From positions 6,333 to 70,332 of the forward strand of contig CAYYWX010000001.1 in assembly GCA_964475405.1 (NCBI GenBank): 64,000 nt of DNA, written 5' to 3'. Each line of letters opens with the position of its first letter. The first letter of the stretch is position 1. Both the position numbers and the translations under genes were made by a program. The notes under the pieces were generated by a model that was not told the origin of the DNA, ran no database searches, and saw only the letters and a program-made list of their open reading frames with translations. This document shows, piece after piece, positions 15,352-53,413 of this stretch. This stretch comes from an uncultured Verrucomicrobiota bacterium (lineage in GTDB: Bacteria > Verrucomicrobiota > Kiritimatiellia > JAAZAB01).

Positions 15352-18300
15352 CTACTTGATTTCAATCTTCATGATCCTGGTCTCATACGGCGCGAGGGTC
15401 ATGGTCGGGCTATCTTCCTTCGCGGCGGCGTTGTAATTCCAGATCGCCTTGATCGGGGTGGCTGCCGGGGCGGTCAACTTAACCTCCACACTCTTGCCGG
15501 TGGTGTTGGCCAGGTAGGTCAGGAGCGCGCCCTCCGCGGACACGGTGCGCGATTCAACGCCCGGCGGGTAGCCGCCGTCCGGCGTGAAGGCCCGGACCGG
15601 ACGCTGGAAACGCAAGTCATCCATCAACCGGTCCAGGAGCGCCCGGCGGCTGTCCACCGTGAGCTGGGCCGCAAGGTATATGACGCGCCCCCTGCCGACC
15701 GGGCGCGAGAGGATTGCCGGCTCCCCGCTTCCCGCGTAGGTTGCCATGACCTGCCAATCCGCGGAGGCCTTCACGCTCTGGATGACGCCCGCCGCGTCAA
15801 GGTTCTCCGGCGCGGCGGCCAGGAATCCGCTCTTCTTGACGGCAACCGTGCGCTTGGGTTCCTTTGAGACGATCGTCTTGGCGACCGGTCCCTGGATGAA
15901 ATCCAGCTCGCCGGTCTGCGCGATGCCCGGCTTGGCTTCCCCGGCCTTGATCTCGGGCAGTTCCTCGGCAAGCAGTTCCAGGCCGAGGTTCCCCAGGTAA
16001 TCGCGCTTGCGGTTGTATTCGTCGGCCACGAGCGAGGTCGGCGTAATGAGCAATGTGCCGCCGCCGGCGACCCATTCCTTAAGCCTGACAAAGACATCCT
16101 CTTCCACGTAGCGGCAGCCGGGGATGACGACCAGCTTGAAGTTGGCCGGGATATTCTCGCGGACGCGGCGCGAGGAAACGAAACCGACCGGCGCGTCAAG
16201 CCGCACCGCGGCCTGGTAGGTCTTCTCCATCTCCAGCGCATAGGGCGTCTTGTGTCCCTGGGTCCGGGGATCGAGCTGGATCAGGGTGGCGCGTGGATAT
16301 AAAAGGGCTATTTCGGCCGGGGCATCCGGGAACGGCGCGATCTGTTTCGCGAGGCGGCGGACATCCAGGGCCGTGCGCATGACCGTGCCCACTTCCTCCA
16401 GTGAGATTGTCGCGGAATGCCGCAAGGCGCTGTTGTCAAACTCCCCTTCACCCGGCGGCCACCACCAGTAATCCATCATTCCGCAGCCGTGGAGGAACAT
16501 GAGGAAGCAGGTGTTCGGCAAGGCATGATATTCCGGGTCAAGGATGGGGACCGGACGGGAGACGAGGTGCCGCTGCAAATCCATCACGCTCGTTACGCCC
16601 AGCGCCCGGCTGCCGGTTTCCGACAGGAATATGTCGTTGACCCCGTCGCGGATCAGGCCCTCCTCGTCAATGCCCTGCCGCCAGAATCCGCTCCCGAACG
16701 GTTCGCCGCCGCCGGTCGTCAGCGGGAGGCCCGGCGCGGCCTTGTTGACTTCACTCTTGGCCCATTTCATGTAATCCGTGAAGCGCCAGAGGTTGAAATC
16801 GCCGAAGTCGTAATACTTGGCCGGGTTGGGTTCCGTCTTGTCCGGCGCATACTCCGACAGGTTAATCTCCTTGAAATCCTTGAAGGCCGTCTTCCAGACG
16901 GCATTGAGTTTTTCCACGCTCCCATACTTGCGCCCGAGCCACTGGCGGAAGAGGTCGGCGGAATAAACGTCGTAATTCACGTAAGAATATTCAAAACCGA
17001 CGTTCACGTAAAGGTTGCCGGGCTTGACGCCCTGGCGCTGGCCGTAGCGGGCAATGGATTTGGCGATGGCCTCGCGCATCTTCGGGCTATCAAGGTTAAT
17101 GACGCAACGCTCCCTGCTGCCGCCCGCGGAGTACTGGTCGCAGATGATGTGTCCGCACCAGCCGCCGTCATAGACGCGGTGGGTCTCGGGATATTTCTGG
17201 TAGGCCTCCCAGACCGGCGTGCTCTGCACGTCGTAGCGGCTCGCGCCGACGGCCGAAATGCTGTAATGATGCGTCCGCGGGGAAAACCAACGTATCAGCT
17301 CGCCGGAGTTATGATACTGCATTGAGAAAAGTATTTTCGGCTCGTCGCCCTCGCAGAAGTAGCGTCCCTTCAATTTTAGTTTCGTGAAGTCCGGGTGGGG
17401 CGGCACCTTGATGTCCGGCGCCTTGCCGGCCATGATGTCCTTCAGGCGCCGGGCGGCCACTTGGCTGGATTGAAGAATGTAGGCCGCGTTCGTCCCGCGC
17501 TGTCCGAGATGGTTTGGCAAATCCCAGCGCACATTAAAGGCAAGAGCGCTTAAAACAATTGGAATCTCGTCGTAAAGAGTTTCAACGCCCCTGGTCTTGG
17601 CCTCCGCCACGACGGTTTTCAACTCCGCCAGGGCCTGCTCCGCCTCGGCGCGGCGCGCGCCCTGCTCCGGCGTTTCCGTCACCAGCGGCGGATCAGCCTT
17701 CATTTCCCGCCCGGTCTCGGCCAGCGTTACGCCGCACTTGGCGTCAAGGTCCATTCCCGTAAGGCTCACATCGTCCACCCAGACACGGCCCCGGCCCTTG
17801 CCGGACAACTGGATGAAGACTTTCACGGCGGGGCACTTGTCGGGCACGTCAAACACCAGCTCCGCCCTCGTCCAGGCGTAGGTGCCCGGCAAGGTCATGA
17901 CCGCGTCGGGAAGGGGTCGCTCGCCGGAATCCGTCACCAATATGCTGGGCACGCCCTGGCCCTGGCTCTGCACGTAGGCGGTCAGTTTCAGGCGGGTGGG
18001 ATATTGCACCGGGATGAGCGGCGAGAAAAATCCGATTTTGCACGGGCCCCTGGCGTCAAGCATCGCCGAGGCGCTGCCGGAATAAACGGCCTTCTCTCCC
18101 TTCCCCAGGAAACTCCGCCCTTCCCAGCGCCGGGCGTTCCACCATTTGAACGGATTGCCCAGGGCATCGGGCGTTTGCAGATCCTCAAACGATCCGTTGA
18201 CCAGGAGTTCCTTGTAGGGCATTTTTACCATGGCGGCCTTAGGAATCACGGGAGGGTTCTCGGAAAGGTACATGTTGTCAATATAGACCATGATCTCTTG

Positions 18301-20658: not shown

Positions 20659-22743
20659 TCATAACTGAGGAGTTATGTTTTTCCGGTACGCGGCGATATA
20701 ACGTTTCAGCCGCGAGCGGTATCCCTCCAAATCGAGCAACTGCTCATCCAGGATCAGGTAAGTCATGTCCGCGGTGCGGTTGGCAAAGTGCCGCGCCCGG
20801 TCGCGGGCGTGCAAATATCTCCGGCCGGGCAAGGACAGTCCCTTGGGCAAACGGGTCCGTTCCCAGAGACGGACAAGGCCGGAGAAGACCCGCTCGCGGT
20901 CGGCGAGGTGATCGCCGATCATCCGCGCGGCCCGGCGCAGATGCCCCAGCGCCGCGCGCCGGTCGGAAAAATGTTCCCCGGACGCCAGGCAAACGGCGTG
21001 TTCCAGTTCCCCGAGCATCAGGATCAGCCCGGCATTGTGGCGCATCAGTTCCGCGACGGACCGCATCAACTCAAGGTCGTGGCGATTCCGCGCGCCGCGC
21101 GAGAGGTTGTCGGCAATGATCGCCTCCGCCCGGAGAAGGGCGTGCTGTTCCTGGAGCGCGCGTTGGGTCAGCGCCCGGTAACGGTTTCGCCAGAAATTGC
21201 TGATCTCAAGGCCGGCGCGCGGGAAATCCGGAAGGTGGATCTTGCCCACGTCGCCGTGATGCCACACGTTGCGCTGGAAAGTGTCGTAATAAAATTCCGC
21301 CGAGTTTTGCAGAAGCGCATAAAGTTCCGGCAGGTCGCGGCCCTCCGGGCCAAAATAGCGCAGGAAAAACCGGCGCGTCCAGCCGGCAATATCGCGTTCT
21401 CGGGCATTCCAGGAGAATTCCGCCCCGCAGACGAAACGCCCCATCCACATCCGGGTGTGAAGGCCCGAGTCGTCCCACGATGTAATGATCGCGCCCTCCA
21501 CGGCCCCGGTCCGCGCCGCGGCGGCGATTGAGGCCGTCTCTTTGAACGTCCCCTGCCGCTCGCATCCCGGCTCGTTCTGCCACATGGACCGCTGCACCCA
21601 GGGAAAATGCGGCAGGAAAAGCGGGGTGATGCCGGGGTTCGGCGCGTAAGTCCAGAGCGCGCGCCCGGCGGCGCGCGCCGCCGCCAAGCTTTCATTATCG
21701 CCGAAAGCCACGCTGACCATGGACTCCGAGGCCGGGTGTTTTGCTCCGGCCTGCCACTGGCCGCCCCACGAGATTGCTTTCCGTCCGCGCTTTTCCACGT
21801 GCGCGACGCAGCGGCTGAGAAAGTCCTGCATCAGCTCGTCCTTCCCCGCCACCCCGGCCCGCGCCTGGCATCCGCACTCCGCGCCCTGGCCCAGTTCGTA
21901 AGTCTCGTCGCAGCCGATGTGAATAAACTCGCTGCCCGGGGTGGCGGCGATGGCCTCGTCCCAGAGATCAAAGAGAAGGCGTAACGAGCCATCCTTCAGC
22001 GGGCAAAATTCCCAGTTGGAATCGGAAATCTCCCGCAGATGCCGGTGCCGGGGATGCTTGAGGATGAACGACACGTGCCCGAGTCCCTGGACGAGCGGCA
22101 CCAGCTGGACGTGATGCTTGAGCGCCAGGCGGGCAAAGGCGCGCACCTGGCCCGGCGTGAAGGCGCCGGGAGCGCCGATTTCCGGGTGACGGCGGTAGGC
22201 GAACTTGTCCTCCCATTCCCAGACCAGCACGTTTATTTTCCAGGACGCGAGTTGGAGGATGAGGTCCCGAACATAGGCAGCGGTGGGCTGGTGGTGCTTG
22301 GTGTCGTAATGAATGGCGCGATATTTCAGGTCGGGCCAATCGTTGATTTCCAGGCACGGGGCCATGACGGCGTCGCCTTCCCGGCGCAAGCACTGTCGCA
22401 GGGTCTGCATGGCATAATAGACGCCGGCGGCATCGCCGCCCTCCAGGACGATTTGTCGCGGTTGAATGGTCAAGCCATAGCCCTGCGGCGGGCGTCCACT
22501 GCCGCGCTTGATGATGAGCTTCACGCGTCCCGGACCGGACCGGCCTTTCGCCACACGCGCCTCCAGCCCGCACTCGGAGCGCAGGCAGCGGCCCAGGTAC
22601 CCGGCCGAGAACCGGTCTTCAGCCGGGGCATCGGGAGCGAGCACGATTGAGATTCCCCGGGAGAGGCGGCAAAAACCTCCGGCCGCCCGGACTTCCTGCG
22701 GCTCGGGAATCAGCGCCAACTCTGGCATTTCGCCGCGTTTCAT
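20659..22743 (-). CDS. Glycoside hydrolase family 20-like beta-N-acetylhexosaminidase
   Basis: GH20 catalytic (beta/alpha)8 signature H-x-G-x-D-E present as HIGCDETYELGQG, with the upstream GH20b-like N-domain. Its ATG overlaps the stop of paralog 2 (ATGA), so the two are translationally coupled. Confidence 0.7.
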   Translation of the reverse strand: MKRGEMPELALIPEPQEVRAAGGFCRLSRGISIVLAPDAPAEDRFSAGYLGRCLRSECGLEARVAKGRSGPGRVKLIIKRGSGRPPQGYGLTIQPRQIVLEGGDAAGVYYAMQTLRQCLRREGDAVMAPCLEINDWPDLKYRAIHYDTKHHQPTAAYVRDLILQLASWKINVLVWEWEDKFAYRRHPEIGAPGAFTPGQVRAFARLALKHHVQLVPLVQGLGHVSFILKHPRHRHLREISDSNWEFCPLKDGSLRLLFDLWDEAIAATPGSEFIHIGCDETYELGQGAECGCQARAGVAGKDELMQDFLSRCVAHVEKRGRKAISWGGQWQAGAKHPASESMVSVAFGDNESLAAARAAGRALWTYAPNPGITPLFLPHFPWVQRSMWQNEPGCERQGTFKETASIAAAARTGAVEGAIITSWDDSGLHTRMWMGRFVCGAEFSWNARERDIAGWTRRFFLRYFGPEGRDLPELYALLQNSAEFYYDTFQRNVWHHGDVGKIHLPDFPRAGLEISNFWRNRYRALTQRALQEQHALLRAEAIIADNLSRGARNRHDLELMRSVAELMRHNAGLILMLGELEHAVCLASGEHFSDRRAALGHLRRAARMIGDHLADRERVFSGLVRLWERTRLPKGLSLPGRRYLHARDRARHFANRTADMTYLILDEQLLDLEGYRSRLKRYIAAYRKNITPQL

Positions 22744-24413
22744 TTTTCGCTGGTCCCTTCCGGCTCGCCAATGCAGTAAAGATGCCTCTGCGCCCGGTAG
22801 AAAATCTTGTTGCCGTCAAAAAACAGGTTACCTACCGTCCCCTCCATCCTGTCTTCCTTATAGTAGTAACTGATGCGCTGGTCGATGGTATTGCGTCCGA
22901 CTTCCTTGTATTCCCGGCCCGGCTCAAGGATCAAGGTCGTCCCGAAGTTGCCGACCAGGAATATTTTCCCTCCGGCAATGGCCGGCGAGGCGGCCATCCC
23001 GCAGCCATAGGGCCGGTCATTGCGCAAGGGCTCATTGCCGAAGTCGAGATTTTTGCTGTAAACGACCTTTTCCGTCAAGACATCGCAGACGAACAATATC
23101 ATGTTCTCTTCCACTCCCCGCTTGCCGCCGCCGCGGGTGATGGTCGTACTGTTGCCGCAGACATAAATCAAACCGTCGTGATAAAGCGGCGAAGGCACCA
23201 CGTGGCGCGCGGTTTCGGGCACTTCCAGGGCCGCGCCCTTGATGGCCGGCTTGAACGGCGCGTCGGCTTTTTCGGGCAGTTTATAGTAACGCAACGGACT
23301 GGTTAATGACCCATATCCATCCAGCCAGCAGACATACCCGCCACCGGCCACGGGCGATCCCACGCTGGGATGCCAGCAGGCGCCCTTGGCAAAACGGCCG
23401 CCGTCGGCAATGGTCATCAGGCTGCCGTCGCCGCCCACCATCACTTTTTTACCATCAATGACTGTGCCGACCGGCGAGGCAAACCACCAGCCGCCCTCGC
23501 CCGGACCCGCCTTATGATCCGTTCTCCAGATTTCCTTGCCGGTTTTCTTGTCCAGCGCCAGGTATTGCCGGCCGACATAAATGATCACCAGGTCCCCGGA
23601 AAGAAGGGGCGAGCTGTAATGGCCGTGCTCCTGCCAGGCGAGCTTGTCAAAGCGGATCCACTTGCGGTTGCCTTCAAGGTCAAAGCAGGCCGTAACGCCC
23701 CACCCGTTCCAGGCGTAGACCAAAGCGCCGTCCGAAGCCGGCGTGGTGCCCATGAACCCGCCTTCGCCCGATATCCCGGGGCCCTTGTATTTTACCTTGT
23801 CGGACGCGGCAAGGAGTTTCATCATCTCGCTGTCGTTCTTGGTTATTTCACCGCCCAGCTTGAAAATTTCGTTGGAGACCGCCGCGGCGGCGACGGCCGG
23901 CATCTTCGCGAGGAGCTCATCGCGCTTTTGCGCCATTTTATCCAGGTTGTCAAAGAGCTCCTTGTTGGCCTCCCGGTCTTCCTTCGTCGCAGCGTCATAG
24001 GGGCTGACCGGCTTGACCCACAGGATTTTGCCCGTGCGCTTCTCCACGCAAATTAGCTCGAAGTCGTTGCCGGTGGTGAAGAGTTTGTCGCCGACCGCGA
24101 TCACGGAGCTGGGAGAGTCAAGGGGCATCCGGACCTGCCAGGCGATATTGGTCCCCTTGCCGTCCTTCAGGCTCCAGGTCATGGGCGGCGTGGCGCCGGG
24201 AAAATGCCCCGTGCCGTCCCCGCGCCAGCCGACCGGCTGTTCCGGCGAAGGGCGGAAGTCCTTTGAACCCAGCGGCGCGTCCTTGGCCGCGGCCGAAGTT
24301 GAAATGCCGCACATTAAGACCGCGAAGGCCAGGCCGGCTGCCGGGATTATCGTCCTCGCAAAATTCAGGTCAATCTTCATTATCTGTTTTCCTTTCAGGG
24401 AACTCATGGTCAC
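22740..24413 (-). CDS. Secreted PQQ-like beta-propeller repeat protein, paralog 2
   Basis: Signal peptide plus N-motif LGSKDFRPSPEQPVGWRGDGTGHFPGATPPMTW. PQQ repeats (CVEKRTGKILWVKPVS). The 3'-terminal ~200 nt are essentially identical to paralog 1. Confidence 0.8.
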   Translation of the reverse strand: MTMSSLKGKQIMKIDLNFARTIIPAAGLAFAVLMCGISTSAAAKDAPLGSKDFRPSPEQPVGWRGDGTGHFPGATPPMTWSLKDGKGTNIAWQVRMPLDSPSSVIAVGDKLFTTGNDFELICVEKRTGKILWVKPVSPYDAATKEDREANKELFDNLDKMAQKRDELLAKMPAVAAAAVSNEIFKLGGEITKNDSEMMKLLAASDKVKYKGPGISGEGGFMGTTPASDGALVYAWNGWGVTACFDLEGNRKWIRFDKLAWQEHGHYSSPLLSGDLVIIYVGRQYLALDKKTGKEIWRTDHKAGPGEGGWWFASPVGTVIDGKKVMVGGDGSLMTIADGGRFAKGACWHPSVGSPVAGGGYVCWLDGYGSLTSPLRYYKLPEKADAPFKPAIKGAALEVPETARHVVPSPLYHDGLIYVCGNSTTITRGGGKRGVEENMILFVCDVLTEKVVYSKNLDFGNEPLRNDRPYGCGMAASPAIAGGKIFLVGNFGTTLILEPGREYKEVGRNTIDQRISYYYKEDRMEGTVGNLFFDGNKIFYRAQRHLYCIGEPEGTSEK

Positions 24414-24445
24414 CTCCGTTAGCTTTTGATTGTTAAATTGAAAGT

Positions 24446-26623: not shown

Positions 26624-26667
26624 TTTTTCCTTTCTATCCAAGGTGGCATATAGCCGCGACCGAATTT

Positions 26668-39870: not shown

Positions 39871-39872
39871 CC

Positions 39873-42478: not shown

Positions 42479-42528
42479 TTTCAGATGGATGATTGACAAT
42501 CCGCCGGTAATGTTATACATTGTATTAC

Positions 42529-43193: not shown

Positions 43194-44291
43194 ATGATGC
43201 TCATGAACCCGATCACAAGCACGTATGACGCGCAACGGATACTGACCGCCTTGAAGGTTGAGCGCGTAATGATCTGGAAGCCCGGCCGGGAGTGGACCTA
43301 TTCCCACCACGCGCACATCGTTTTCTTCAAGGAAATGTTTTACGCGATCTGGTCCAATGGAAGGAAAGATGAGGACGCTCCCGGCCAGAGGATCATGATC
43401 AGCAGTTCCAGGGATTTTATCTCGTGGTCAATTCCCAAGCCGCTGGTTGATTCATTACCCGGCAAGGGGAGCACGGAGTTTGTCCTGACCGCGGCCGGCT
43501 TCCATCAATACGCCGGGACGCTGGCGGCTTATTTCGGGCAATACGAGGAAGACAAATCCGAAACCTGCCTTCGGGCCGTGACGACAACCGACGGCGCGGC
43601 CTGGAGCCCGATCCGGGAAATGAATATTCCCGTGAACCCTAATCACGGTCCGCAGCCGACCCGGACCGGGCGGCTGATCATCGCCGGCAATATTTCCTTC
43701 CCCTGCACGGACGATCCGGCCGGATTAAATGGCTGGAAAATGAGCGGGGTTTTTCCCCCGCAAATGGCGGGGATGAGCGACAACCCCGCGAGTTTCTGGG
43801 AGGTCAAGCAAAAGATGAACTGGCCCGTGGCCCTGTGTGAAGGGGCGTTCTATCAAACCGACGACGGCATAATCCATATGCTCCTCCGCGCCACCGGCCC
43901 GGGTTATCGCGGCCGGCTCTGGGTGACGGAAAGCCGTGACGACGGGACGACCTGGGGCGCCCCGCTGGAAACGCAGTTCGGGGATGCGGATACGAAATTC
44001 CATTTCGGGCGTTTGCCCGACAAGCGTTTTTATTACGTCGGATGTCCTGATCCCAATAGCGCCGGGAAACGCTCGCCGCTCATCCTTTCCATTTCGGAAG
44101 ACGGACACATTTTTGACCGGCATTTCCGGATAGCGGACGAGCCTTATGTGATGCGTTTTCCGGGACGATGGAAGGGCGGAGAATACGGTTATCCGCATAC
44201 GATGGTCCGGAACGGACATCTGTATGTGATTGTCTCACGCCAGAAGGAAGCCGTGGAAGTCATCCGCCTCTCGCTTGACCAGGTTATCTGA
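43194..44291 (+). CDS. BNR/Asp-box beta-propeller protein, exo-alpha-sialidase (GH33)-like
   Basis: Two Asp-box motifs S/T-x-D-x-G-x-x-W (TTTDGAAWSP and SRDDGTTWGAP) in a ~360-aa beta-rich protein. Sialidase activity is not provable from sequence. Confidence 0.55.
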   Translation: MMLMNPITSTYDAQRILTALKVERVMIWKPGREWTYSHHAHIVFFKEMFYAIWSNGRKDEDAPGQRIMISSSRDFISWSIPKPLVDSLPGKGSTEFVLTAAGFHQYAGTLAAYFGQYEEDKSETCLRAVTTTDGAAWSPIREMNIPVNPNHGPQPTRTGRLIIAGNISFPCTDDPAGLNGWKMSGVFPPQMAGMSDNPASFWEVKQKMNWPVALCEGAFYQTDDGIIHMLLRATGPGYRGRLWVTESRDDGTTWGAPLETQFGDADTKFHFGRLPDKRFYYVGCPDPNSAGKRSPLILSISEDGHIFDRHFRIADEPYVMRFPGRWKGGEYGYPHTMVRNGHLYVIVSRQKEAVEVIRLSLDQVI

Positions 44292-44443: not shown

Positions 44444-45682
44444 TTATTCTGCCTTCAACTCATAAGGGGAAACTGAACTACGGGCGGCAATCACCACCAA
44501 CGCGGCGGGGATGAGCCAGATCTGGGCTACCTGAACAATATTGTCGGGATAATCGCCCAGGCCATAGATGTGGATGAACAAAAGCATAAGGGCAATCGTG
44601 CCCGGCAAAAGACGTTCGTCCAATGTCCGCCCGGCCCATATCCTGCGCAAGAGCCCAATTGCCAGCAAGAGCCAGGCAAGGGCATAAAGGCAGAAACCCG
44701 TCAATCCATATTCAAAAAGCAACTTGAGCCAATACTGGTGACAATGCGGGAAATGAAAACTGGCCCGCGGCGGTTGGGAGGCGTAATAGTTCATTTCAAA
44801 ATTGCCCTTGCCGTAGCCGTAACCGAACCATTTTTTCTCCTTAACAAGCTCCCAGGTATGCTTCCAGACCTTGTCCCGCTCGCTGAATCCGCTCATGGTT
44901 TTCTTTTCCGCGAAGCGCGGGTTGATGCGGTGGAAGTTGATCAAAAGGACGGCGCCCAGGACGATAATCGCCGCCACCCAGGCAAACTTGAGTTTCCATC
45001 CGGGTAAAAGCAAGCCGCTGAAGGCAAATGCCAGCGCGAACGCTATTTGCGGACCGCGCGAAGCGGCGATCACCAGATACGCCAGGCAGACAAGGCCACC
45101 CGCCAGGCAACCCAGGGCCGGCCACAAAGATTTGCGGTTTTCCCAAATAAAATACAGGAAAACAAAAAACGAAAGGCCTGCCATCATGCTGGCGACATTG
45201 GAATGATTGAGGATGAAAGGCCTGAATGAATGCGCCTTGGCGAATATGGCGGGGCCGAGATAATAAGTCATCCGGACCAGATCGTATCCCAGGACCAGCG
45301 CAATACCGACCGCGCTGTAAAAAAGAGCCCGGGCGATTTTTTTATCGGTGTTGAAAATGACCGGGATGGCAAACGCGCCCGCCAATATCTCGATCATGCC
45401 CTCGGTGTCATGGATGGACATCTCCGGCGAAATGGAAAAAGGGAGCGTGAATAAATGATAAACGAGGAGAATGACGAACGCCACCCCGGCCGGCTGTCGC
45501 CAGGCCGCCTTCCCGCGATAAGCGAAAAAGAGCGCGCCCAAGGACGCGCCGAAAACAATCACATCCTGGACGGCAGTGGCCGAGAATTTCCAGATGATGA
45601 CGCCCATGGCCGCGCCGGCGATAAAACGGACCCAGCTCCTTGCAGAAAGAGCGGCGCTAATCTGTTTTACTTTTTCAAACAT
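44444..45682 (-). CDS. O-antigen ligase/polymerase-like (Wzy_C) polytopic membrane protein; AT-richer than flanks
   Basis: About 10-12 TM helices with a large loop, as in O-antigen ligase-like proteins. GC is lower than in neighbouring genes. Confidence 0.5.
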   Translation of the reverse strand: MFEKVKQISAALSARSWVRFIAGAAMGVIIWKFSATAVQDVIVFGASLGALFFAYRGKAAWRQPAGVAFVILLVYHLFTLPFSISPEMSIHDTEGMIEILAGAFAIPVIFNTDKKIARALFYSAVGIALVLGYDLVRMTYYLGPAIFAKAHSFRPFILNHSNVASMMAGLSFFVFLYFIWENRKSLWPALGCLAGGLVCLAYLVIAASRGPQIAFALAFAFSGLLLPGWKLKFAWVAAIIVLGAVLLINFHRINPRFAEKKTMSGFSERDKVWKHTWELVKEKKWFGYGYGKGNFEMNYYASQPPRASFHFPHCHQYWLKLLFEYGLTGFCLYALAWLLLAIGLLRRIWAGRTLDERLLPGTIALMLLFIHIYGLGDYPDNIVQVAQIWLIPAALVVIAARSSVSPYELKAE

Positions 45683-45766
45683 ACATATTTTTATTCATAT
45701 TTGGAGGGCCACGTTTCATCGTGGCCGTTCTTGACTTTAAATCATTAGTCCATATAAATGCCGTTC

Positions 45767-46693
45767 TTATCTTTCCCTGGCAATAATATATTCCACAATC
45801 TCCTTCAGCGGCTCAATATTTCCATTCAAGGGCGCCAGAGATTCAACCGCCTCCCCGGCCAGGCGGCGCGTCATCTTCCGCGCCTTTTCCAGGCCATAAA
45901 CCGCCACGTAAGTCATCTTGCCGCGCGCCCGGTCGCTGCCGGCGGCCTTGCCGAGCGCCTTCGGCGTTGAGGTCTCATTAAGGATATCATCGGCGATTTG
46001 AAACGCCAGGCCCGCCCTTTCGCCGTAGTCGCCCAGCGCCGCCAATTCCTTTTTGCCGGCCCCGGCGCAGATGCCGCCAATGCGCGCGGCGGCCTTTATA
46101 AGACAGGCTGTTTTATGCAGGTGAATATATTTCACCACGGCCGCGTTCGGTTTTTTTCCTTCGCAGGAAAGATCCTCAACCTGGCCCGCGACCACGCCCA
46201 GGCTTCCGGCGGCGCGCGCCAGTTCCAGGATCAGGTCGGTTGTCTTGTGCGGCGGGAGCGGCGTTGCCGCCGCCATCCATTCAAAGGCGAGCGTCAGGAG
46301 GGCATCGCCGGCAAGGACGGCGTTCGCCTCGCCGAAAGCAACGTGACAGGTCGGCTTGCCCCGGCGCAGGTCGTCATCATCCATGCAGGGCAGGTCGTCA
46401 TGGATAAGCGTGTAAGTATGCAGAACTTCCATGGCCAGGGCGGGAACAAGGGCGTATTTTTCCTTCCCCGGTCCTCCAACCGCCCCGGCGGCGGCCAAGC
46501 AAAGAATTGGCCGGAGGCGCTTCCCGCCGGCCATGACGCTGTAACGCATGGCGCGGTGCAGGATGGCCGGCCGGCTGTTTGCCGCCGGCAAAGAACGCTC
46601 CAAAGCTGCGTTGACCAGCCTGGTTTTTGCTTTTAAATATTGCTGGAGATCGAACATGGGGTCCAAAATGGTCTTATCCACTAATAAAATCAA
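45767..46693 (-). CDS. ispA: Polyprenyl diphosphate synthase (farnesyl/geranylgeranyl diphosphate synthase, IspA-like)
   Basis: First aspartate-rich motif LIHDDLPCMDDDDLRRG and second motif FQIADDILN, with the KT/chain-length-determination region upstream of motif 1. Confidence 0.85.
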   Translation of the reverse strand: MILLVDKTILDPMFDLQQYLKAKTRLVNAALERSLPAANSRPAILHRAMRYSVMAGGKRLRPILCLAAAGAVGGPGKEKYALVPALAMEVLHTYTLIHDDLPCMDDDDLRRGKPTCHVAFGEANAVLAGDALLTLAFEWMAAATPLPPHKTTDLILELARAAGSLGVVAGQVEDLSCEGKKPNAAVVKYIHLHKTACLIKAAARIGGICAGAGKKELAALGDYGERAGLAFQIADDILNETSTPKALGKAAGSDRARGKMTYVAVYGLEKARKMTRRLAGEAVESLAPLNGNIEPLKEIVEYIIARER

Positions 46694-47947: not shown

Positions 47948-48187
47948 ATGACAACCGTAACCTTGACCGAATTCAGGAGCCATGCATCCGGCATGCTGAA
48001 CCGAGTAGAAAATGGAGAGACACTGCTGGTCCTTCGACATGGACGACCTATCGCGGAGGTGACGCCCGTTGCAAATCAAAATAACGGGCAACCTTCGTGG
48101 AAAAAGCCAGGCCTGCGCCTTTCGACCAAAGGCATTAGCCTTTCTGCGGCCATCTTGGCGGAGCGAGACCATGAAAGCATATCTTGA
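47948..48187 (+). CDS. Type II antitoxin, Phd/YefM family
   Basis: MTTVTLTEFRSHASGMLNRVENGETLLVLRHGRPIAEVTPV is the canonical Phd/YefM N-terminus. It overlaps the downstream PIN gene start by 17 nt. Confidence 0.75.
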   Translation: MTTVTLTEFRSHASGMLNRVENGETLLVLRHGRPIAEVTPVANQNNGQPSWKKPGLRLSTKGISLSAAILAERDHESIS

Positions 48188-48584
48188 TTCATCCGCCTTT
48201 GCAAAACGCTTCATAGAAGAGAGCGGAAGCGATGCAGTCGAATCCATCTGTGCCAAGGCCTTGGAACTTGGACTAAGCATCCTCTGCGTGCCCGAGATCA
48301 TCTCGGCACTTAGCCGTCGCCTACGCGAACATACGCTGACGCACGCCCAGTACAATGAGGCAAAACGTCGATTGCTGGATGATGTCCGGGACGCAGACAT
48401 CATAACGCTGACGCCCTCGGTAATTGGTTCAGCCATCATGATCATCGAGGCAAGCCCTGTCAGAGCGATGGACGCGCTGCACATAGCCTGTGCGCTTGAG
48501 TGGGGCGCAGAACTGTTTGCATCATCCGACAAGCAGCAACTGAGCGCAGCAAAACGAGCGGGCCTGAAAACACAGCAGACATGA
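48171..48584 (+). CDS. vapC: PIN-domain toxin VapC
   Basis: MKAYLDSSAFAKRFIEE...DALHIACALEWGAELFASSD carries the PIN acidic tetrad positions. The track ORF starts upstream at 48069, but the Met at 48171 pairs with the antitoxin stop. Confidence 0.75.
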   Translation: MKAYLDSSAFAKRFIEESGSDAVESICAKALELGLSILCVPEIISALSRRLREHTLTHAQYNEAKRRLLDDVRDADIITLTPSVIGSAIMIIEASPVRAMDALHIACALEWGAELFASSDKQQLSAAKRAGLKTQQT

Positions 48585-48619: not shown

Positions 48620-49960
48620 ATGAACCTGAAAGCTGGATTCGCCGAGGTCGAGATCAACCCGCAAACATTCCCCGCCCGGACCTACTGGGGGCCAGTCGAC
48701 ACCGTCATTGACCCTCTCTTTGCCCATGCCGCCGTGTTCCACGATGGAGCGAGCACCATCGCGTTTCTGTCTCTCGATGTCGTCATTGTCGAACGTGAAT
48801 ACGTTCTGGCGATTCGGGAACAGGTCAGCCGTGCATGTCCGATTTCCCCTGAATGCATCATGATCTGTGCGACCCATAACCATGCGTGTCCCGCCGTTGT
48901 CGAACGCCCATGGTCAGAAAAGGATCGCGAGTACCTGCGGCACATGGTCGAACAGGCGGTTGCGGCGATCATCAAAGCTTTCCATGCAATGGTTCCCGTT
49001 GAGATCGGGACGGGCGCCTGTTACGAGGGGCGGGTGTCGTTCAATCGCCGATTCATCATGAAAAACGGTTCGGTGATTTCACAGCCATCTTTCAATATCG
49101 TAGATAGAGATGTGCTGTTTGGCGAAGGAACCATTGATCCGCAAGTCGGCGTACTGTGCGCAAGAGACAGCAACCGAAGAATCGTGGGGATACTCGTCAA
49201 TTTTGCCTGCCACGCCACGCACCTTATGGGCAGCCTGTCCGCCGGTTTCCCCGGAGTGTTGTCTGATCGTCTCAAGAAAACGTATGGCGAGAACTCTATT
49301 TGTGTATTCCTCAATGGCGCATGTGGCAACGTCATCCACATGAATTATGCCGACCCTGGATGCGAAGACACGAAGGACAGGATCGGTTCAGTTCTTGCCG
49401 ATGATGTCATCCGTATTGTGGAAGGCATCACGTATTCCGGGCAAGCCAGGATTGCGGCGGCCTCAACCAGCGTTGCCATCCCTTACAGAGAGATAGATGG
49501 GCTTGAGCAGAACTTGGACAACTTGACTTCCTTCAACGTCTTTAAAGGACTGATTGAAAGAGGCTGGTACCAGTGGTCGCTGGACAAGCTGAAAGCCCTG
49601 CACTCGAAGAGCGACCATGAGAATGCCGAGATCCAGGTATTGATGATTGGCGACACTGTTTTCGGTGCAGTACCAGCCGAATACTTCTCGCAACATTCCC
49701 TGCGCATCAAGGAACAGAGCCCGGTTAAAGATACCTTTGTGGTGTCATTGGCAAACGGTTGGCTGGGTTATATCCCCCACAGGGAGGCCTTTAACCGCAT
49801 CGGCGGTCACGAGAGCACTTGGTGTATCTCAAGCAAGATGGAACCCGGAGCGGGAGACCGCATGGCAGATGCCATGTTGGAAATTATCAGAAAGCTTTCG
49901 ATCGGAGACCGTGCGACACCGACCAAGCGGAATGCGAAAGCCCCTCGAGACAACGCTTGA
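48620..49960 (+). CDS. Neutral/alkaline ceramidase-like hydrolase (N-terminal ceramidase domain family)
   Basis: Family-like features include ICATHNHACP and NFACHATH histidine clusters and the EVEINPQTFPARTYWGP N-terminus, resembling bacterial neutral ceramidase-like proteins. AAAGAGGA RBS. Tentative. Confidence 0.45.
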   Translation: MNLKAGFAEVEINPQTFPARTYWGPVDTVIDPLFAHAAVFHDGASTIAFLSLDVVIVEREYVLAIREQVSRACPISPECIMICATHNHACPAVVERPWSEKDREYLRHMVEQAVAAIIKAFHAMVPVEIGTGACYEGRVSFNRRFIMKNGSVISQPSFNIVDRDVLFGEGTIDPQVGVLCARDSNRRIVGILVNFACHATHLMGSLSAGFPGVLSDRLKKTYGENSICVFLNGACGNVIHMNYADPGCEDTKDRIGSVLADDVIRIVEGITYSGQARIAAASTSVAIPYREIDGLEQNLDNLTSFNVFKGLIERGWYQWSLDKLKALHSKSDHENAEIQVLMIGDTVFGAVPAEYFSQHSLRIKEQSPVKDTFVVSLANGWLGYIPHREAFNRIGGHESTWCISSKMEPGAGDRMADAMLEIIRKLSIGDRATPTKRNAKAPRDNA

Positions 49961-49975: not shown

Positions 49976-51862
49976 ATGAGTTGTGCTTCATGGCGGATGC
50001 AAGATGATATGAAATCAAAATCCGGTCAAATTCCATCGCAAGCCGTGGAAGGGGCCTTCGGGCGGATTTTCACCGACAAAAAAACCTACCGTCCGCTGGA
50101 TACCGTCACGGTCCATATCCGGGGCCGCGACCGGGGGGATAAAAAGTGCACCGTTCGCGTGTGCGATCCCGGCCAACGCCAATATTTTGAGTCCGGGGCG
50201 GCATTAAATAACAACCGCGGCAGCATATCATTCCGCGCGGGATTGACGCTCGGCGCGCACTATGTTTACCTGGTCTGGCCCGGTGAAAAATGGCACAGCA
50301 GATACGTCAACTTCCGGCTGGACTGCGGGACGGGCATTGAGTCCGGGGACCCGGACTTTGACGGCATCTACCCCTTCACGCGCGAGGCGATGCTTCTCGG
50401 CCGGCGCGAATATGAAACCCCCGCCGGAAAGTTCGTTGGATACATCTCGGCCGATACGTGGCATTTTGACGGCATCTGGCTTCGGGACTGGATTTATGGC
50501 CTGAGCGCGTACCGGTATTGGGAAACGGAAATGACCTGCGGGCTTGACCGTTTCCTGGAAAAACAATCCGCAAACGGCATGGCGCCGGACGGCATAGAAC
50601 GCAATGGCCGCACCTGGCGCGTGGGGCTGGAATCCGATGTGGAATACATCATGGCGCTCGGCGTCTGGCGAACGTGGCAGGCCACCGGCGACGACCGCTG
50701 GATGGCCGCCGCCTTGCCGCGCCTTGAAAAGGCGCTGGCCTATATCCGCAACGACCCGAAACACTGGGACAAGAAACATAAACTCGTCAAGCGCCAGCAC
50801 AGTTGCGACACGTGGGATTTTGACATTGACGGCGCATCCGACCGGGGCAAGGCGCGGCATGTAATCGCCACCTGCGACCAGGGCGGATATTTCCTCGCCT
50901 TCCGGGCCATGAGCCAAATGTATGCGCGCCTCGGCAAGACAAGAGAGGCAAAACGCTGGGCGAAGGAGGCGGACGCATACCGGCGGAGAGCGAATCAATT
51001 GCTTTGGGACGGCGGCAAGTTCCTGCACCACTTTCACCTGGACAAGATCAGTCATGGCGATTTTGACGAAGGCAACCAGCTCGCCATGGGCAACACCTGG
51101 GCAATGACGCGCGGCCTGGCCGCGCCGGCCCAGGCCAAAAGCATCATTGACGAATACCGCCGCCGCCATGCCGCAACGGGCGATGCTTATCCCTGGTGGA
51201 GTCTCCAGCCGGGATACCCGGATCACCTGGGCTACTTCCACCAGGAATACTGCCGCCAGGGCGGATACGCCAATGGCGGCTTGATGCCGTGGGTCGGCGG
51301 CGAACTATGCCGGGCGGCATTCCTTTTTGGAAGGGAAGAATACGGCGTTGAGCTCCTCCGCGCCTATGCAAAGCACCTGAAACGCACCGGCGGAGCCCAA
51401 GTCTGGTACTGGCCGAACGGCAAACCCGGGTTCCGAACCACAAACGAGGTCCCCTATGCCGGATGGGGCATGGCCGAATGGGTGAACGCGACCTTGGAAG
51501 GCCTGGCCGGCATCCAGGACGATAACGGCCAATTACGCGCCGTCACCCTGTCGCCAAACTGGGCGGTGATTCCGGCGAAAGATGTCCGGGTCAGCGTCCG
51601 TTATGCCGCCTCAAGGGCTTATTTTTCCTACCGGCTGCGCCTCGACGAATGCCGAAAAGAGATTCATCTGGACTGCACCGGTTCCGGGGAGCGCGTGAAA
51701 ATCAGGATCTTGCTGCCCAAGGGATGGAAACCAAGGGCCGCGAGCGATAACGGCAGACCTTGCGACTTCCGGGTGGATGAACAGGAAACAAGCCGGCGCG
51801 TGTGTTTATCAACGCGCTTGTCTGAGGTTCATTCCATATTGATTGCCTGTAAAAGTCGTTGA
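49976..51862 (+). CDS. Six-hairpin (alpha/alpha)6 glycoside-hydrolase-like protein with N-terminal beta-sandwich
   Basis: Trp-rich helical repeats (WHFDGIWLRDWIYGLSAYRYWE; GGYANGGLMPWVGGELCRAAF) typical of GH63/GH15/GH37-type toroids. Family unassigned and start uncertain. Confidence 0.5.
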   Translation: MSCASWRMQDDMKSKSGQIPSQAVEGAFGRIFTDKKTYRPLDTVTVHIRGRDRGDKKCTVRVCDPGQRQYFESGAALNNNRGSISFRAGLTLGAHYVYLVWPGEKWHSRYVNFRLDCGTGIESGDPDFDGIYPFTREAMLLGRREYETPAGKFVGYISADTWHFDGIWLRDWIYGLSAYRYWETEMTCGLDRFLEKQSANGMAPDGIERNGRTWRVGLESDVEYIMALGVWRTWQATGDDRWMAAALPRLEKALAYIRNDPKHWDKKHKLVKRQHSCDTWDFDIDGASDRGKARHVIATCDQGGYFLAFRAMSQMYARLGKTREAKRWAKEADAYRRRANQLLWDGGKFLHHFHLDKISHGDFDEGNQLAMGNTWAMTRGLAAPAQAKSIIDEYRRRHAATGDAYPWWSLQPGYPDHLGYFHQEYCRQGGYANGGLMPWVGGELCRAAFLFGREEYGVELLRAYAKHLKRTGGAQVWYWPNGKPGFRTTNEVPYAGWGMAEWVNATLEGLAGIQDDNGQLRAVTLSPNWAVIPAKDVRVSVRYAASRAYFSYRLRLDECRKEIHLDCTGSGERVKIRILLPKGWKPRAASDNGRPCDFRVDEQETSRRVCLSTRLSEVHSILIACKSR

Positions 51863-51994: not shown

Positions 51995-53413
51995 ATGAAA
52001 AAAAACAGATTCGCGTTATTTTTCGGCAACCGCGCTTTTTTCCCCGCCAGCCTGATGAAGGAGGCGCGCGAGCAGCTCCCGGCGGTCTTGAAGGAAATGG
52101 GATATGAAAGCCTGATGATGGACGCCCGCACCACGCCGCACGGCGCGGTGGAAACATTCCGCGAAGGGAAAATCTTTGCCGAATTCCTGAAAAAAAACCG
52201 GGGGAAATACGACGGCATCATCATCTGCCTGCCGAATTTCGGCGATGAAAACGGCGCCCTGGCCGCGATGCGGGATGAAGACGTCCCGATCCTCGTCATG
52301 GCCTACCCGGACGAGCTTGACAAACTCGGGCCGGCCGCGCGGCGCGACGCCTTCTGCGGCAAGCTCTCGGTCATGGACGTCTTTTACCAGGCCGGGATCA
52401 AATTCACCGCCCTCGCGCCGCACACGGTCCACCCGCAATCCGGCCGGTTCGGCGAGAACATGGATTATTTCGCGCGGGTCTGCCGGGTCGTCAACGGCGT
52501 CAGGGGCATGGTGCTCGGCGCGATCGGCGCGCGGACAACGCCCTTCAAGACCGTCCGCTTTGACGAGACCTGCCTGCAGAAAAACGACATCACCGTTGAA
52601 ACGTTCGACCTTTCGATGGTGATGCGGATGATCGCCTCCACGTCGCTCGCCTCCCCCCGGGCAAAGGCCGCCGCCAAACTTCTCGCCAATTACTCGTCCT
52701 GGCAGGGCGTCCCCCGGAAAGCCTTTGATAACAGCGTGAAGCTGGCGCTCGTCCTGGATGACATGATCAAGGACTCCGAGCTGGACGCGATTGCCCTTCG
52801 GTGCTGGACCGAATTCCAGGTTGAACTCGGTATTTCGCCCTGCGTGGTCATGAGCATGCTCAACAACCGCGGCACGGTGGCCGCCTGCGAGGTGGATGTC
52901 GGCAGCGCCATCATGATGCGCGCGCTCGGCCTGGCTTCCGACGGCATTTCGGCCTGCCTGGACTGGAACAATAATTACGGGGATGAGGACGACAAGTGCA
53001 TCCTGTTCCATTGCGGCCCCATCCCGGCCGCCATGATGCAGGGCGCGGGCCGGGTGGCGGACCACGCGATCATCGCCAATTCCATCGGCAAGGGACGCAG
53101 CTTCGGCTGCAATGTCGGGCGCATCGCGCCCGGCGATTGCACCTTCGGCACCTTGCTGACCGACGGCGGCAAGATAAAATGCTGCCTGGGCGAGGGCGCT
53201 TTCACCGACGACGCCATACCGCCCGAGTTTTTCGGCTGCGCCGGCGTGGTTGAAATCGAAAACCTGCAGCAGGTCATGCTCCACCTCGGGCAAAACGGCT
53301 ACCGCCATCACGTCAGCGTCGCGCGCGGGCATGTGGCCGCCCCGGCCCGCGAGGCCCTCGGCCGCTACCTCGGATTTGAGGTTGCGCAGCCCCAAAATAT
53401 CCAGTATAAGTAA
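51995..53413 (+). CDS. L-fucose/L-arabinose isomerase family protein (short FucI-like)
   Basis: N-terminal Rossmann-like segment (RFALFFGNRAFFPASLMKEAREQL...GIIICLPNFGDE) and C-terminal substrate-binding domain architecture of the fucose isomerase family. Confidence 0.55.
   Translation: MKKNRFALFFGNRAFFPASLMKEAREQLPAVLKEMGYESLMMDARTTPHGAVETFREGKIFAEFLKKNRGKYDGIIICLPNFGDENGALAAMRDEDVPILVMAYPDELDKLGPAARRDAFCGKLSVMDVFYQAGIKFTALAPHTVHPQSGRFGENMDYFARVCRVVNGVRGMVLGAIGARTTPFKTVRFDETCLQKNDITVETFDLSMVMRMIASTSLASPRAKAAAKLLANYSSWQGVPRKAFDNSVKLALVLDDMIKDSELDAIALRCWTEFQVELGISPCVVMSMLNNRGTVAACEVDVGSAIMMRALGLASDGISACLDWNNNYGDEDDKCILFHCGPIPAAMMQGAGRVADHAIIANSIGKGRSFGCNVGRIAPGDCTFGTLLTDGGKIKCCLGEGAFTDDAIPPEFFGCAGVVEIENLQQVMLHLGQNGYRHHVSVARGHVAAPAREALGRYLGFEVAQPQNIQYK

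Follow-up and report, generated by a model that had tools for sequence, protein, structure and literature searches.

The enzyme sets known to degrade host glycans, such as the mucin and HMO enzymes of Akkermansia and Bifidobacterium and the glycosphingolipid enzymes of Paenibacillus sp. TS12, comprise secreted or surface enzymes, GH33 sialidases, GH29/GH95 fucosidases, GH2/GH35 members and sugar-specific transport and catabolic genes. The stretch of DNA analysed here (64,000 nucleotides, referred to as the window) has GH20, GH42-type and sialidase-fold enzymes together as these sets do, but none of their other features was seen. In BT1020 of Bacteroides thetaiotaomicron, which belongs to an RG-II PUL, a GH143 propeller is fused to a GH142 beta-L-arabinofuranosidase, and this N-terminal propeller has Dha-hydrolase function (PMC6811678). 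The GH167 enzymes carry an extra N-terminal region and show remote (<20%) similarity to GH42, and the GH42-like enzyme of the window is alike in this respect (PMC6923384). The neutral ceramidases (PaCD, 2zws; human ASAH2, 4wgk) are proteins of about 650-700 residues.

The DNA originated from a groundwater metagenome, and its host is best read as an uncultured PVC-type Gram-negative groundwater bacterium. The open reading frames of the preliminary description were all found in place (Table 1). The region between 15.3 and 53.4 kb had been regarded as a cluster of glycan genes. It was indeed enriched in glycan-processing genes, with 6 GH-like members of ~28 genes against 0 of ~22 in the window flanks, but since the boundaries were set post hoc and the hypergeometric p was about 0.024, the enrichment is modest. 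Judged from gene order, strands and gaps, the GH-like genes are divided among at least five transcription units, with both strands involved, and are interrupted by unrelated genes: three toxin-antitoxin pairs, an SMR pump, TauE, Wzy_C and a polyprenyl synthase. Both flanks are of housekeeping nature (BamA, Skp, LpxD and ExbBD upstream, ABC and T2SS genes downstream). Signal-peptide-like N-termini were found only on the propellers, the GH42-like enzyme and the beta-helix protein, while the GH20, sialidase-like, ceramidase-like, GH127, WbsX, six-hairpin and isomerase proteins lacked them and looked cytoplasmic.

Table 1. Features of the region, in nucleotide positions of the window
Feature	Position	Strand	Basis
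Secreted clan GH-A enzyme, GH42/GH167-like, 1153 aa, N-terminal extension ~480 aa	15352..18813	-	Pfam, PDB matches
Secreted PQQ_2-type beta-propeller paralogue, 543 aa	18841..20472	-	Pfam PQQ_2, signal peptide, shared N-terminal motif
GH20 beta-N-acetylhexosaminidase-type enzyme, no signal peptide	20659..22743	-	Pfam GH20b and GH20
Secreted PQQ_2 propellers, two further paralogues of 557 and 763 aa, same orientation as GH20	22740..26737	-	
Secreted beta-helix-like protein, 480 aa	26914..28356	-	Weak NCBIfam matches, signal peptide
AraC-family regulator	28926..29789	+	Pfam HTH_18
PQQ_2 propellers in divergent orientation, 740 aa (-) and 699 aa (+)	part of 29911..36567	-/+	Pfam
TauE/SafE-type anion exporter, no relation to glycan cleavage	36977..37801	+	Pfam TauE, 170 bits
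GH127-like enzyme, cytoplasmic	37933..39819	+	Pfam GH127 catalytic and middle domains
RelB/YafQ toxin-antitoxin pair	39873..40399	+	
SMR small multidrug-resistance pump	40515..40874	+	
PF14307 (WbsX) TIM-barrel-type protein, previously called GH99-like	41206..42252	+	Pfam
RHH/PIN toxin-antitoxin pair	42520..43190	+	
Sialidase-fold beta-propeller, BNR_2 with BT_1020-like N-terminus, GH143/GH33-like, no signal peptide	43194..44291	+	
Wzy_C (O-antigen-ligase-like) and polyprenyl synthase, envelope and housekeeping	44444..46693	-	
Phd/PIN toxin-antitoxin pair	47948..48584	+	
Cytoplasmic neutral-ceramidase-like zinc hydrolase, 446 aa, N-terminal catalytic domain only	48620..49960	+	Family profile
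Cytoplasmic (alpha/alpha)6 six-hairpin glycosidase, beta-sandwiches at N- and C-terminus	49976..51862	+	
Short FucI/AraA-superfamily aldose-ketose isomerase, 472 aa	51995..53413	+	Pfam Fucose_iso_C

Among the enzyme genes named in the preliminary description, only the GH20 and the GH42-like genes are co-operonic. There is a 4-nt overlap between the start of the GH20 gene and the stop of the propeller gene preceding it, and 27 nt separate the 543-aa propeller gene from the downstream GH42-like gene. The assignment of a GH20-like beta-hexosaminidase was borne out by the Pfam scores (GH20b 75 bits, GH20 47 bits) and by the catalytic Asp-Glu pair in HIGCDE, which aligned to HLGGDE of 4pys. Its N-terminus, MKRGEMPELALIPEP, contains no signal peptide, and the closest GH20 relatives likewise lack a hydrophobic N-terminus. 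The GH42-like enzyme, described earlier as a beta-galactosidase, exceeded the Pfam cut-offs for GH42 (54 bits) and GH42M (60 bits), and has the clan GH-A TIM barrel and the GH42-type trimerisation-like domain in common with GH42 and GH167, while its length and long N-terminal extension distinguish it from both. Its best PDB match was 6ptm (BovGH167, E 1.1e-15), with the GH42 structure 4oif at 1.5e-13, and it is equally close to the two families. Since the GH167 exo-beta-carrageenase has no activity on pNP-beta-Gal, the galactosidase label should not be assumed. The N-terminus is signal-peptide-like, and E608 and E751 are candidate catalytic glutamates, by position only. Upstream, the 480-aa protein matched the choice-of-anchor Q and parallel beta-helix repeat models of NCBIfam, both weakly, and a translationally coupled 691-aa protein within 29911..36567 had no family match.

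The GH127-like call was upheld by both Pfam domains. Its best NCBIfam match was aceric acid hydrolase (61 bits, cut-off 950), and an E-x-C ... C-C motif is present (ELC at residue 298, CC at 381), the spacing of which is like that of the Glu/Cys zinc site of HypBA1 with its Cys nucleophile. In the case of the gene at 41206..42252, a GH99 identity was rejected, as no GH99 match was obtained at E<=0.01; the protein belongs to PF14307 (WbsX, 68 bits) with a weak GH71 match, and no PDB relative was found.

The protein which had been called a BNR/Asp-box sialidase does have the sialidase-type beta-propeller fold and the Asp-boxes. The residues E216, R232, R293, Y333 and D61 are invariant in its family with sialidase-like spacing, but at R24, the position resembling that of the RIP motif, only 22 of 37 members have Arg. 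However, GH33 had to be rejected as its closest family, since the profile comparison with sialidases gave an E of about 2e-5, in the Asp-box region only, against 5.9e-16 for the GH143 domain of BT1020. The top Foldseek match was likewise the N-terminal propeller of BT1020, and PF24067 was reached with 29 bits (cut-off 27). By profile, then, the nearest sequence family is the GH143 pectin Dha-hydrolase rather than GH33. The protein differs from BT1020 in being a stand-alone propeller of 365 residues with no GH142 module and no signal peptide, identity is about 20% (21% or less), and no PUL or pectin genes are nearby; neither a GH142 partner nor other RG-II enzymes were found in the window. Unlike the GH33 sialidases compared (Micromonospora viridifaciens 1eur, human NEU1/NEU2, NanA), it is cytoplasmic and no sialic-acid catabolic genes (nanA/K/E) accompany it in the window. 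The BNR_2 family was found in soil and freshwater taxa, and its occurrences include Mucilaginibacter, Chitinophagaceae, Verrucomicrobia and Armatimonadota.

The neutral-ceramidase-like gene starts at 48620 and not at 48500. Its product scored below the Pfam gathering score (25.7 vs 32.1 bits), but the family profile reached the human neutral ceramidase (E 2.3e-7) and that of Pseudomonas (E 1.1e-6). The residues H97, H99, H204, E411 and Y448 of PaCD, its zinc ligands and catalytic His, aligned to the family-invariant H86, H88, H198, E354 and Y384. By the family profile the homology to neutral ceramidase is real despite the sub-cut-off score, and it concerns the N-terminal catalytic domain. [quoted passage not shown] A hydrophobic N-terminus was present in just 5 of 120 family members, that is, the family is cytoplasmic throughout, and ceramide is an unlikely substrate for such an enzyme. 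Its members occur widely among Lentisphaerae, Verrucomicrobia and Planctomycetes. The gene lies in a block (46.9-49.96 kb) with a GC3 of 0.45-0.63, against 0.70-0.83 around it; its own GC3 is lower than that of its neighbours, and the block is missing from the sister genome.

The six-hairpin call holds at the superfamily level. The (alpha/alpha)6 fold was closest to GH100 (invertase), and also resembled GH94, GH63 and GH37, but identity to the GH100 invertase InvB (5z73) and to GH63/GH37/GH15-type glycosidases was 10-16%, the terminal beta-sandwich domains are extra to those enzymes, and no Pfam GH family was reached convincingly. The protein described as an L-fucose isomerase matched Pfam only through its C-terminal domain, Fucose_iso_C, and the three-domain FucI architecture was not found by Pfam. 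Its best NCBIfam match, full-length but weak, was the sulfoquinovose isomerase SftI (75 bits, cut-off 700), and neither a solved FucI nor any other PDB entry matched at E<=0.1. FucI orthology was rejected on these grounds, and the window contains neither a GH29/GH95 fucosidase nor fucK, fucA or fucP.

Conserved linkage was then sought in relatives. In 80 genomes, a second window gene lay within 10 kb of the sialidase-like relative in three cases for GH20 and in one for the FucI-like gene; the GH127, WbsX, ceramidase-like, six-hairpin and GH42-like genes were found there in none of the 80. Genes for a DHDPS/NanA-like aldolase, GH3 and GH29-like proteins recurred near BNR_2 relatives (7-8 of 80 loci). 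The ceramidase-like orthologues (82, 81, 72 and 51% identity) occupied four mutually unrelated contexts, with aminotransferases, ABC transporters or acyl-CoA dehydrogenase as neighbours, and three GH20 relatives (71, 65 and 58% identity), their surroundings likewise unrelated, had no propeller or GH42-like neighbour. After the 65%-identical one come genes for HAD and ROK-kinase proteins, an arrangement like that of amino-sugar salvage, and the 71%-identical one has GH123-type genes on its flanks. The GH123 family includes glycosphingolipid beta-GalNAc-ases. In the sister contig L109, whose six-hairpin protein is 87% identical, the order Wzy-polyprenyl-six-hairpin-FucI-like-Lyase_1 is kept, but CbiMQO stands in place of the ceramidase-like, BNR_2, PIN, WbsX and GH127 genes. 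The co-localisation across genomes that marks a conserved PUL-like glycan-utilisation locus was thus absent, apart from the six-hairpin to FucI-like order, which was kept only in the three closest relatives.

Most of the motif-based calls fell in the right superfamilies, thus the sialidase-like and the ceramidase-like proteins did not turn out to belong to unrelated families. The preliminary description had combined these calls into a stepwise dismantling of host-type glycosphingolipids or mucin O-glycans by sialidase, beta-galactosidase, hexosaminidase and ceramidase, with the fucose isomerase acting on the released fucose. The four superfamilies are all present with apparently intact active-site residues (the GH20 pair, the sialidase-fold invariants, the ceramidase zinc ligands, the GH42 domains), two of the genes share an operon, and GH123-type genes flank a GH20 relative. 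However, every test of the coherence of this pathway was negative: the genes are split among transcription units, the sialidase-like, ceramidase-like and GH20 proteins have no signal peptide, and the linkage is not conserved. The GH143 affinity of the propeller, the truncated, sub-cut-off ceramidase-like protein with its changing contexts, the isomerase that is no FucI orthologue, the missing GH29/GH95, nanAKE and fucKA genes, the groundwater source and the soil or freshwater spread of the sialidase-like family also speak against it. Moreover, the closest characterised relatives (GH143 Dha-hydrolase, aceric acid hydrolase of GH127, GH167 carrageenase, GH100 invertase) act on plant/algal glycans or small glucosides. 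Nothing ties the genes specifically to animal gangliosides or mucin, and we consider the pathway very improbable.

Another reading is the scavenging of a plant or algal acidic heteropolysaccharide, RG-II-like pectin or similar, in which the GH127-like enzyme would take off beta-L-arabinofuranose or aceric acid, the GH143-like propeller would release Dha or Kdo-type ulosonic acids, and the GH42/GH167-like enzyme and the beta-helix protein would work extracellularly. The RG-II enzymes among the best characterised relatives, the carrageenan GH167 as best PDB match, the occurrence of BNR_2 proteins in typical plant-polymer degraders and the recurrent aldolase, GH3 and GH29-like neighbours are in favour of this. 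It is nevertheless unlikely, as the matches are all remote, GH127-like and BNR_2 genes were linked in none of the 80 loci, the enzymes are cytoplasmic, and pectate lyase, GH28, GH78, GH95, GH138-GH142 and SusC/D-like genes are absent from the window. The cytoplasmic location of GH20, BNR_2 (as an ulosonidase-like propeller) and WbsX would suit a role in which the cell turns over or remodels glycans of its own envelope (peptidoglycan, the Kdo-containing LPS core, O-antigen-like polymers); the adjacent genes for Wzy_C and polyprenyl synthase, the occurrence of BamA-Skp-LpxD in the window and the salvage-type neighbours of a GH20 relative agree with it. But the Wzy/polyprenyl synthase adjacency is kept for the six-hairpin gene and not for BNR_2 or WbsX, no nagA/B, anmK or ampG-like recycling genes were seen, and an operon for secreted propellers and the GH42-like enzyme speaks for a substrate outside the cell, which makes this role quite improbable.

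The region is probably an accessory-genome mosaic of general glycan-scavenging genes with no dedicated pathway. This reading starts from the observed family and fold assignments, missing signal peptides, gene order and missing conserved linkage, and the substrates and the division of labour are what we infer from them. Against it, GH-like genes are denser here than a uniform scatter would give, therefore the locus may to some extent have been under a common selection for glycan use, and the GH123-type genes flanking the 71%-identical GH20 relative also count against it. Three kinds of glycan-related units would stand side by side for lineage-specific reasons. The minus-strand operon from 26.7 to 15.3 kb, with its secreted PQQ_2-type propellers, cytoplasmic GH20 and secreted GH42/GH167-like enzyme, and with the AraC regulator and further propeller paralogues adjoining, would probably be directed at an extracellular polymer containing beta-Gal/beta-HexNAc. 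The GH127-like, PF14307/WbsX and ulosonic-acid-hydrolase-like proteins would be single, separately transcribed cytoplasmic exo-enzymes, with a toxin-antitoxin pair or some unrelated gene between each gene and the next, and would probably trim imported oligosaccharides. The third unit would consist of the six-hairpin glycosidase followed by the short FucI-like isomerase. As the glycosidase resembles in fold invertase and the GH63/GH37-type enzymes, which hydrolyse small glucosides, more than any others, a small glycoside may be split in the cytoplasm and the product then undergo aldose-ketose isomerisation. Just upstream of this pair lies the ceramidase-like zinc amidohydrolase gene, in the lower-GC3 block. 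In one other lineage a distant ceramidase-like paralogue adjoins a six-hairpin relative (L096/L097) or lies 5 kb from it (the related L098), and this pairing, which may be more than pure chance, also counts against the mosaic.

The open reading frames named in the preliminary description were all present in the window (58% GC), and at superfamily level seven of its eight family calls are borne out, all but the GH99-like one. The coherent pathway for host glycosphingolipids or mucin that had been built on these calls is not supported, superfamily names being its sole basis. The enrichment of GH-like genes in the 15.3-53.4 kb region is modest (6 of approx. 28 genes inside and 0 of approx. 22 outside; hypergeometric estimate approx. 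0.024, with region boundaries set post hoc). In the best-supported reading, which we consider fairly probable, the region is an accessory-region mosaic.

Coordinates and domain matches of the features discussed
Feature	Position	Strand	Domain matches or content
ORFs of 691, 838, 284 and 267 aa	34492-36567, 9679-13046, 14524-15327		no Pfam match
GH42-like protein, 1153 aa	15352-18813	-	Pfam GH42 54 bits, GH42M 60 bits
PQQ_2-type propellers	18841-34495		five secreted paralogues
GH20 protein	20659-22743	-	GH20b and GH20 domains; catalytic D-E pair
TauE/SafE	36977-37801	+	sulfite-exporter type
GH127-like protein	37933-39819	+	Pfam GH127 catalytic and middle domains
RelB/YafQ	39873-40399	+	type II toxin-antitoxin pair
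PF14307 WbsX protein	41206-42252	+	Pfam 68 bits, GH71 weakly
RHH/PIN	42520-43190	+	type II toxin-antitoxin pair
BNR_2 protein	43194-44291	+	BNR_2 77 bits, Beta-prop_BT_1020 29 bits
Low-GC3 block	46920-49960		two small unknown ORFs, Phd/PIN, ceramidase-like
Phd/PIN	47948-48584	+	type II toxin-antitoxin pair
Ceramidase-like gene	48620-49960 (earlier 48500)	+	Ceramidase_alk 25.7 bits, cut-off 32.1
Six-hairpin protein	49976-51862	+	weak Pfam six-hairpin matches
FucI-like isomerase	51995-53413	+	Pfam Fucose_iso_C only

A true operon lies on the minus strand, in the order PQQ_2 propeller (763 aa), propeller (557 aa), GH20, propeller (543 aa), GH42-like and 267-aa unknown. The GH20 start overlaps the stop of the preceding propeller gene by 4 nt, and the GH42-like gene is separated by 27 nt from the 543-aa propeller and by 24 nt from the 267-aa ORF. 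The adjoining unit consists of divergent propeller genes with an AraC regulator. The five propeller paralogues are 39-73% identical and have the N-terminal motif LGSPDFRPSPEQPVGWRGDGTGK in common; three lie in the operon of GH20 and the GH42-like gene. The 691-aa ORF had no NCBIfam match either and is translationally coupled to a propeller gene. In the GH20 protein both the domains and the catalytic pair were found, HIGCDE being aligned with HLGGDE of 4pys. Both GH42 domains were likewise present in the GH42-like protein, and the closest PDB structures were BovGH167 (6ptm, E 1.1e-15) and a Geobacillus GH42 (4oif, 1.5e-13). The former is a "GH42-like" exo-beta-carrageenase, the founder of GH167, without activity on pNP-beta-Gal (PMC6923384).

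In the plus-strand run something unrelated stands between each GH-like gene and its successor. First come TauE, GH127-like, RelB/YafQ, SMR, WbsX, RHH/PIN and BNR_2, then, on the opposite strand, Wzy_C and polyprenyl synthase, and finally two small unknowns, Phd/PIN, and the ceramidase-like, six-hairpin and FucI-like genes. The interleaved toxin-antitoxin pairs suggest a plastic accessory region. Housekeeping genes make up both flanks, with BamA, Skp, LpxD, a TPR protein and ExbB/ExbD upstream and ABC transporter and type II secretion genes downstream. Signal-peptide-like N-termini were found only in the propellers, the GH42-like enzyme and a beta-helix protein; the GH20, GH127-like, WbsX, BNR_2, ceramidase-like, six-hairpin and isomerase proteins had none, and the closest GH20 relatives are likewise cytoplasmic by N-terminus. 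A promoter and terminator scan gave results no better than shuffled sequence.

The BNR_2 protein, described before as sialidase-like, truly belongs to the sialidase superfamily, with a confident AlphaFold model (pLDDT 93), but a GH33 sialidase could not be demonstrated. A family profile built from 37 homologues matched the N-terminal propeller of BT1020 at E 5.9e-16, while true sialidases were reached at approx. 2e-5 at best, via the Asp-box region only. This BT1020 module is assigned to GH143 (PMC6811678). E216, R232, R293, Y333 and E60/D61 are invariant in the 37 members, and the RIP-motif position is Arg in only 22 of them. The protein is probably an ulosonic-acid hydrolase, as judged from these residues and profiles. 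Its start codon lies 3 nt past the PIN stop (43190-43194) and the signal-peptide-like N-terminus is missing. A hydrophobic signal-like N-terminus occurs in 46 of 120 relatives, the closest ones among them (P0122, P0123, P0126, P0127), and insertion of the toxin-antitoxin pair may have removed the export signal.

The ceramidase-like protein belongs to the expected superfamily, although it stays below the Pfam cut-off. The true start of its gene is 48620 (MNLKAGFAEVEINP), and the region 5' of it overlaps the Phd/PIN pair. A profile of 38 homologues matched the human (E 2.3e-7) and Pseudomonas (E 1.1e-6) neutral ceramidases, and residues H97, H99, H204, E411 and Y448 of the P. aeruginosa enzyme were aligned with the invariant H86, H88, H198, E354 and Y384 of the family. 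The protein, of approx. 430 aa, has no signal peptide and, unlike neutral ceramidase, no C-terminal domain. Since only 5 of 120 N-termini are hydrophobic, the family is predicted to be cytoplasmic throughout. By alignment it is a ceramidase-superfamily zinc amidohydrolase. The literature search on bacterial neutral-ceramidase homologues was uninformative. Both the sialidase-like and the ceramidase-like protein lie within their expected superfamilies and neither in an unrelated family; the preliminary description had named unrelated families as the outcome that would tell against its reading. A 343-aa ORF on the minus strand (47852-48883) is probably spurious: it matches no family and overlaps Phd/PIN and the ceramidase-like gene on the opposite strand.

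The GH127-like call is borne out by both domains. The top NCBIfam model was aceric acid hydrolase, with a score far under the cut-off, and the E-x-C ... C-C pattern at residues 298 and 381 fits the HypBA1 zinc/cysteine site. The supposed GH99-like protein turned out to be PF14307 WbsX, with no GH99 match; a single-sequence PDB search gave no solved relative, and a literature search on WbsX/PF14307 only unrelated filarial antigen papers. The six-hairpin family comprises 704 clusters (50% identity) at E<=1e-3 among 1.84 billion representatives and reaches no CAZy or Pfam family convincingly, its members' Pfam matches being scattered over MGH1-like_GH, GH94, GH78, trehalase and GH116. A single-sequence PDB search found nothing, and the family profile found only an exo-beta-D-arabinofuranosidase (E 8.5e-4) and an invertase (0.014). 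In the model (pLDDT 92) an (alpha/alpha)6 barrel stands between two beta-sandwiches. A GH116 glucosylceramidase, which would have revived the glycosphingolipid reading, was considered, but these results do not point to a glycolipid enzyme. They point to a putative cytoplasmic enzyme that hydrolyses a small substrate of glucoside type, with an aldose-ketose isomerase as the next step. For the latter, the fucose-isomerase-like call stands at superfamily level by Fucose_iso_C alone, with no solved relative at E<=0.1 in the PDB. Its top NCBIfam model was the sulfoquinovose isomerase SftI, which it matched from end to end but at 75 bits vs the cut-off of 700. A sulfoquinovose pathway, considered for this isomerase together with the TauE-type gene of the window, was rejected on account of this low score and the lack of sulfoquinovosidase, transketolase and sulfolyase genes in the window; the co-occurrence is probably a coincidence. 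The literature search on SftI was uninformative.

Linkage among relatives was poor. The scan of BNR_2 relatives used one genome per species, and the best 80 of 315 were examined with 10 kb on each side. These 80, all from soil, freshwater or groundwater taxa (Verrucomicrobia, Planctomycetota, Lentisphaerae, Armatimonadota, Chloroflexi, Mucilaginibacter, Chitinophagaceae), had no GH127, WbsX, ceramidase-like, six-hairpin or GH42-like relative within 10 kb; GH20 was found in 3 and a FucI-like gene in 1. The sole recurrent neighbours, a DHDPS/NanA-type aldolase (8), an FAD oxidoreductase (8), GH3 (8) and a GH29-like gene (7), are compatible with a sugar-acid substrate and not with the gene set of the window. 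Ceramidase-like orthologues (82, 81, 72 and 51% identity) stand in four unrelated neighbourhoods (FtsX/ABC, aminotransferase and group II intron; LacI and unknowns; PIN with acyl-CoA dehydrogenase, P5CR and Topo VI; ABC transporter, AraC, DegT aminotransferase, a second ceramidase-like gene and AP_endonuc_2), and tblastn with all window proteins found no other window gene there. No propeller or GH42-like gene was near the GH20 relatives (71, 65 and 58% identity), one of which is followed by HAD and ROK-kinase genes. The order six-hairpin, FucI-like, Lyase_1 is kept in the closest three (87, 77 and 70% identity) of 29 metagenomic six-hairpin relatives. The 87% sister contig also keeps Wzy and polyprenyl synthase upstream, and carries CbiMQO in place of ceramidase-like, BNR_2, PIN, WbsX and GH127 genes. 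The 46.9-49.96 kb block is absent from its polyprenyl synthase-six-hairpin interval, and since GC3 in this block is 0.45-0.63 vs 0.70-0.83 around it, the difference from the sister genome looks like an indel. A mobile cassette of toxin-antitoxin pair, 175-aa ORF and ceramidase-like gene common with L002, the contig of the 72% orthologue, was rejected, similarity being found in the ceramidase-like gene only.

As to degradation of host glycans, the enzymes are mostly cytoplasmic, their genes are neither co-transcribed nor co-conserved, and the closest characterised relatives work on plant or algal glycans or on small glucosides. The companion catabolic genes are also absent: no GH29/GH95 fucosidase, GH33, GH2/GH35, nanA/K/E, fucK/fucA or sugar-specific transporter was found in the 64 kb. 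The habitat is groundwater, contigs from groundwater metagenomes carrying identical genes; homologue labels, by which the taxon was placed, point to the PVC group (Lentisphaerae, Planctomycetota/Phycisphaerae, Kiritimatiellae, Verrucomicrobia). The mosaic would instead consist of a real operon of secreted propellers, GH20 and the GH42-like enzyme; of independent genes for several cytoplasmic exo-enzymes, with toxin-antitoxin modules between them; and of the six-hairpin/isomerase pair, directly preceded by a ceramidase-like amidohydrolase gene that was acquired separately. The substrates of these enzymes we infer.

One counter-observation to the absence of linkage concerns the ceramidase-like and six-hairpin families. 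A distant ceramidase-like paralogue (25-29% identity, 38.6 bits for Ceramidase_alk) lies divergently beside a six-hairpin relative in L096 and L097, contigs of the same organism (99.96% nucleotide identity), and in the related L098 another paralogue is 5 kb from a six-hairpin relative. The two families adjoin in the window and in this one further lineage. They could make up an undescribed cytoplasmic route for N-acylated glycosides, where the glycosidase would free the sugar, the cytoplasmic, C-terminally truncated ceramidase-like hydrolase of PVC bacteria would take off the acyl group, and the short FucI-like isomerase would lead to glycolysis. We regard such a route as very improbable. The locus itself raises no new question and matters mostly as a caution: co-occurrence alone does not show a host-glycan lifestyle, since free-living members of the PVC group, Chloroflexi and Bacteroidota commonly carry genes of the sialidase-fold, ceramidase-like and fucose-isomerase-like kinds. 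The stand-alone GH143/GH33-like propeller, the short cytoplasmic ceramidase-like hydrolase, the six-hairpin family and PF14307 are reasonable targets for enzyme discovery.

Some minor observations were made at the relatives' loci. The identity of the BNR_2 protein to the listed relatives, from several phyla, is 52-73%. In the best 80 of 315 loci the stand-alone BNR_2/BT1020-like propeller is 52-65% identical to that of the window, the hosts including Verrucomicrobia, Planctomycetota, Chloroflexi, Armatimonadota, Bacteroidota and one Competibacteraceae MAG, which suggests strong constraint and/or horizontal transfer; in approx. 7 of the 80 the matching ORF comes from a cluster of roughly 1500-aa ORFs, which may be fusions to a much larger protein. 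A PQQ_2 propeller also adjoins the six-hairpin relative in L098. L002 carries topoisomerase VI A and B subunits (13380-16198), unusual in bacteria. The 71%-identical GH20 relative (L093:1058-15222) is flanked by two GH123-type genes, with a GFO/IDH/MocA oxidoreductase and a C25 peptidase, and its neighbourhood looks more HexNAc-focused than that of the window.
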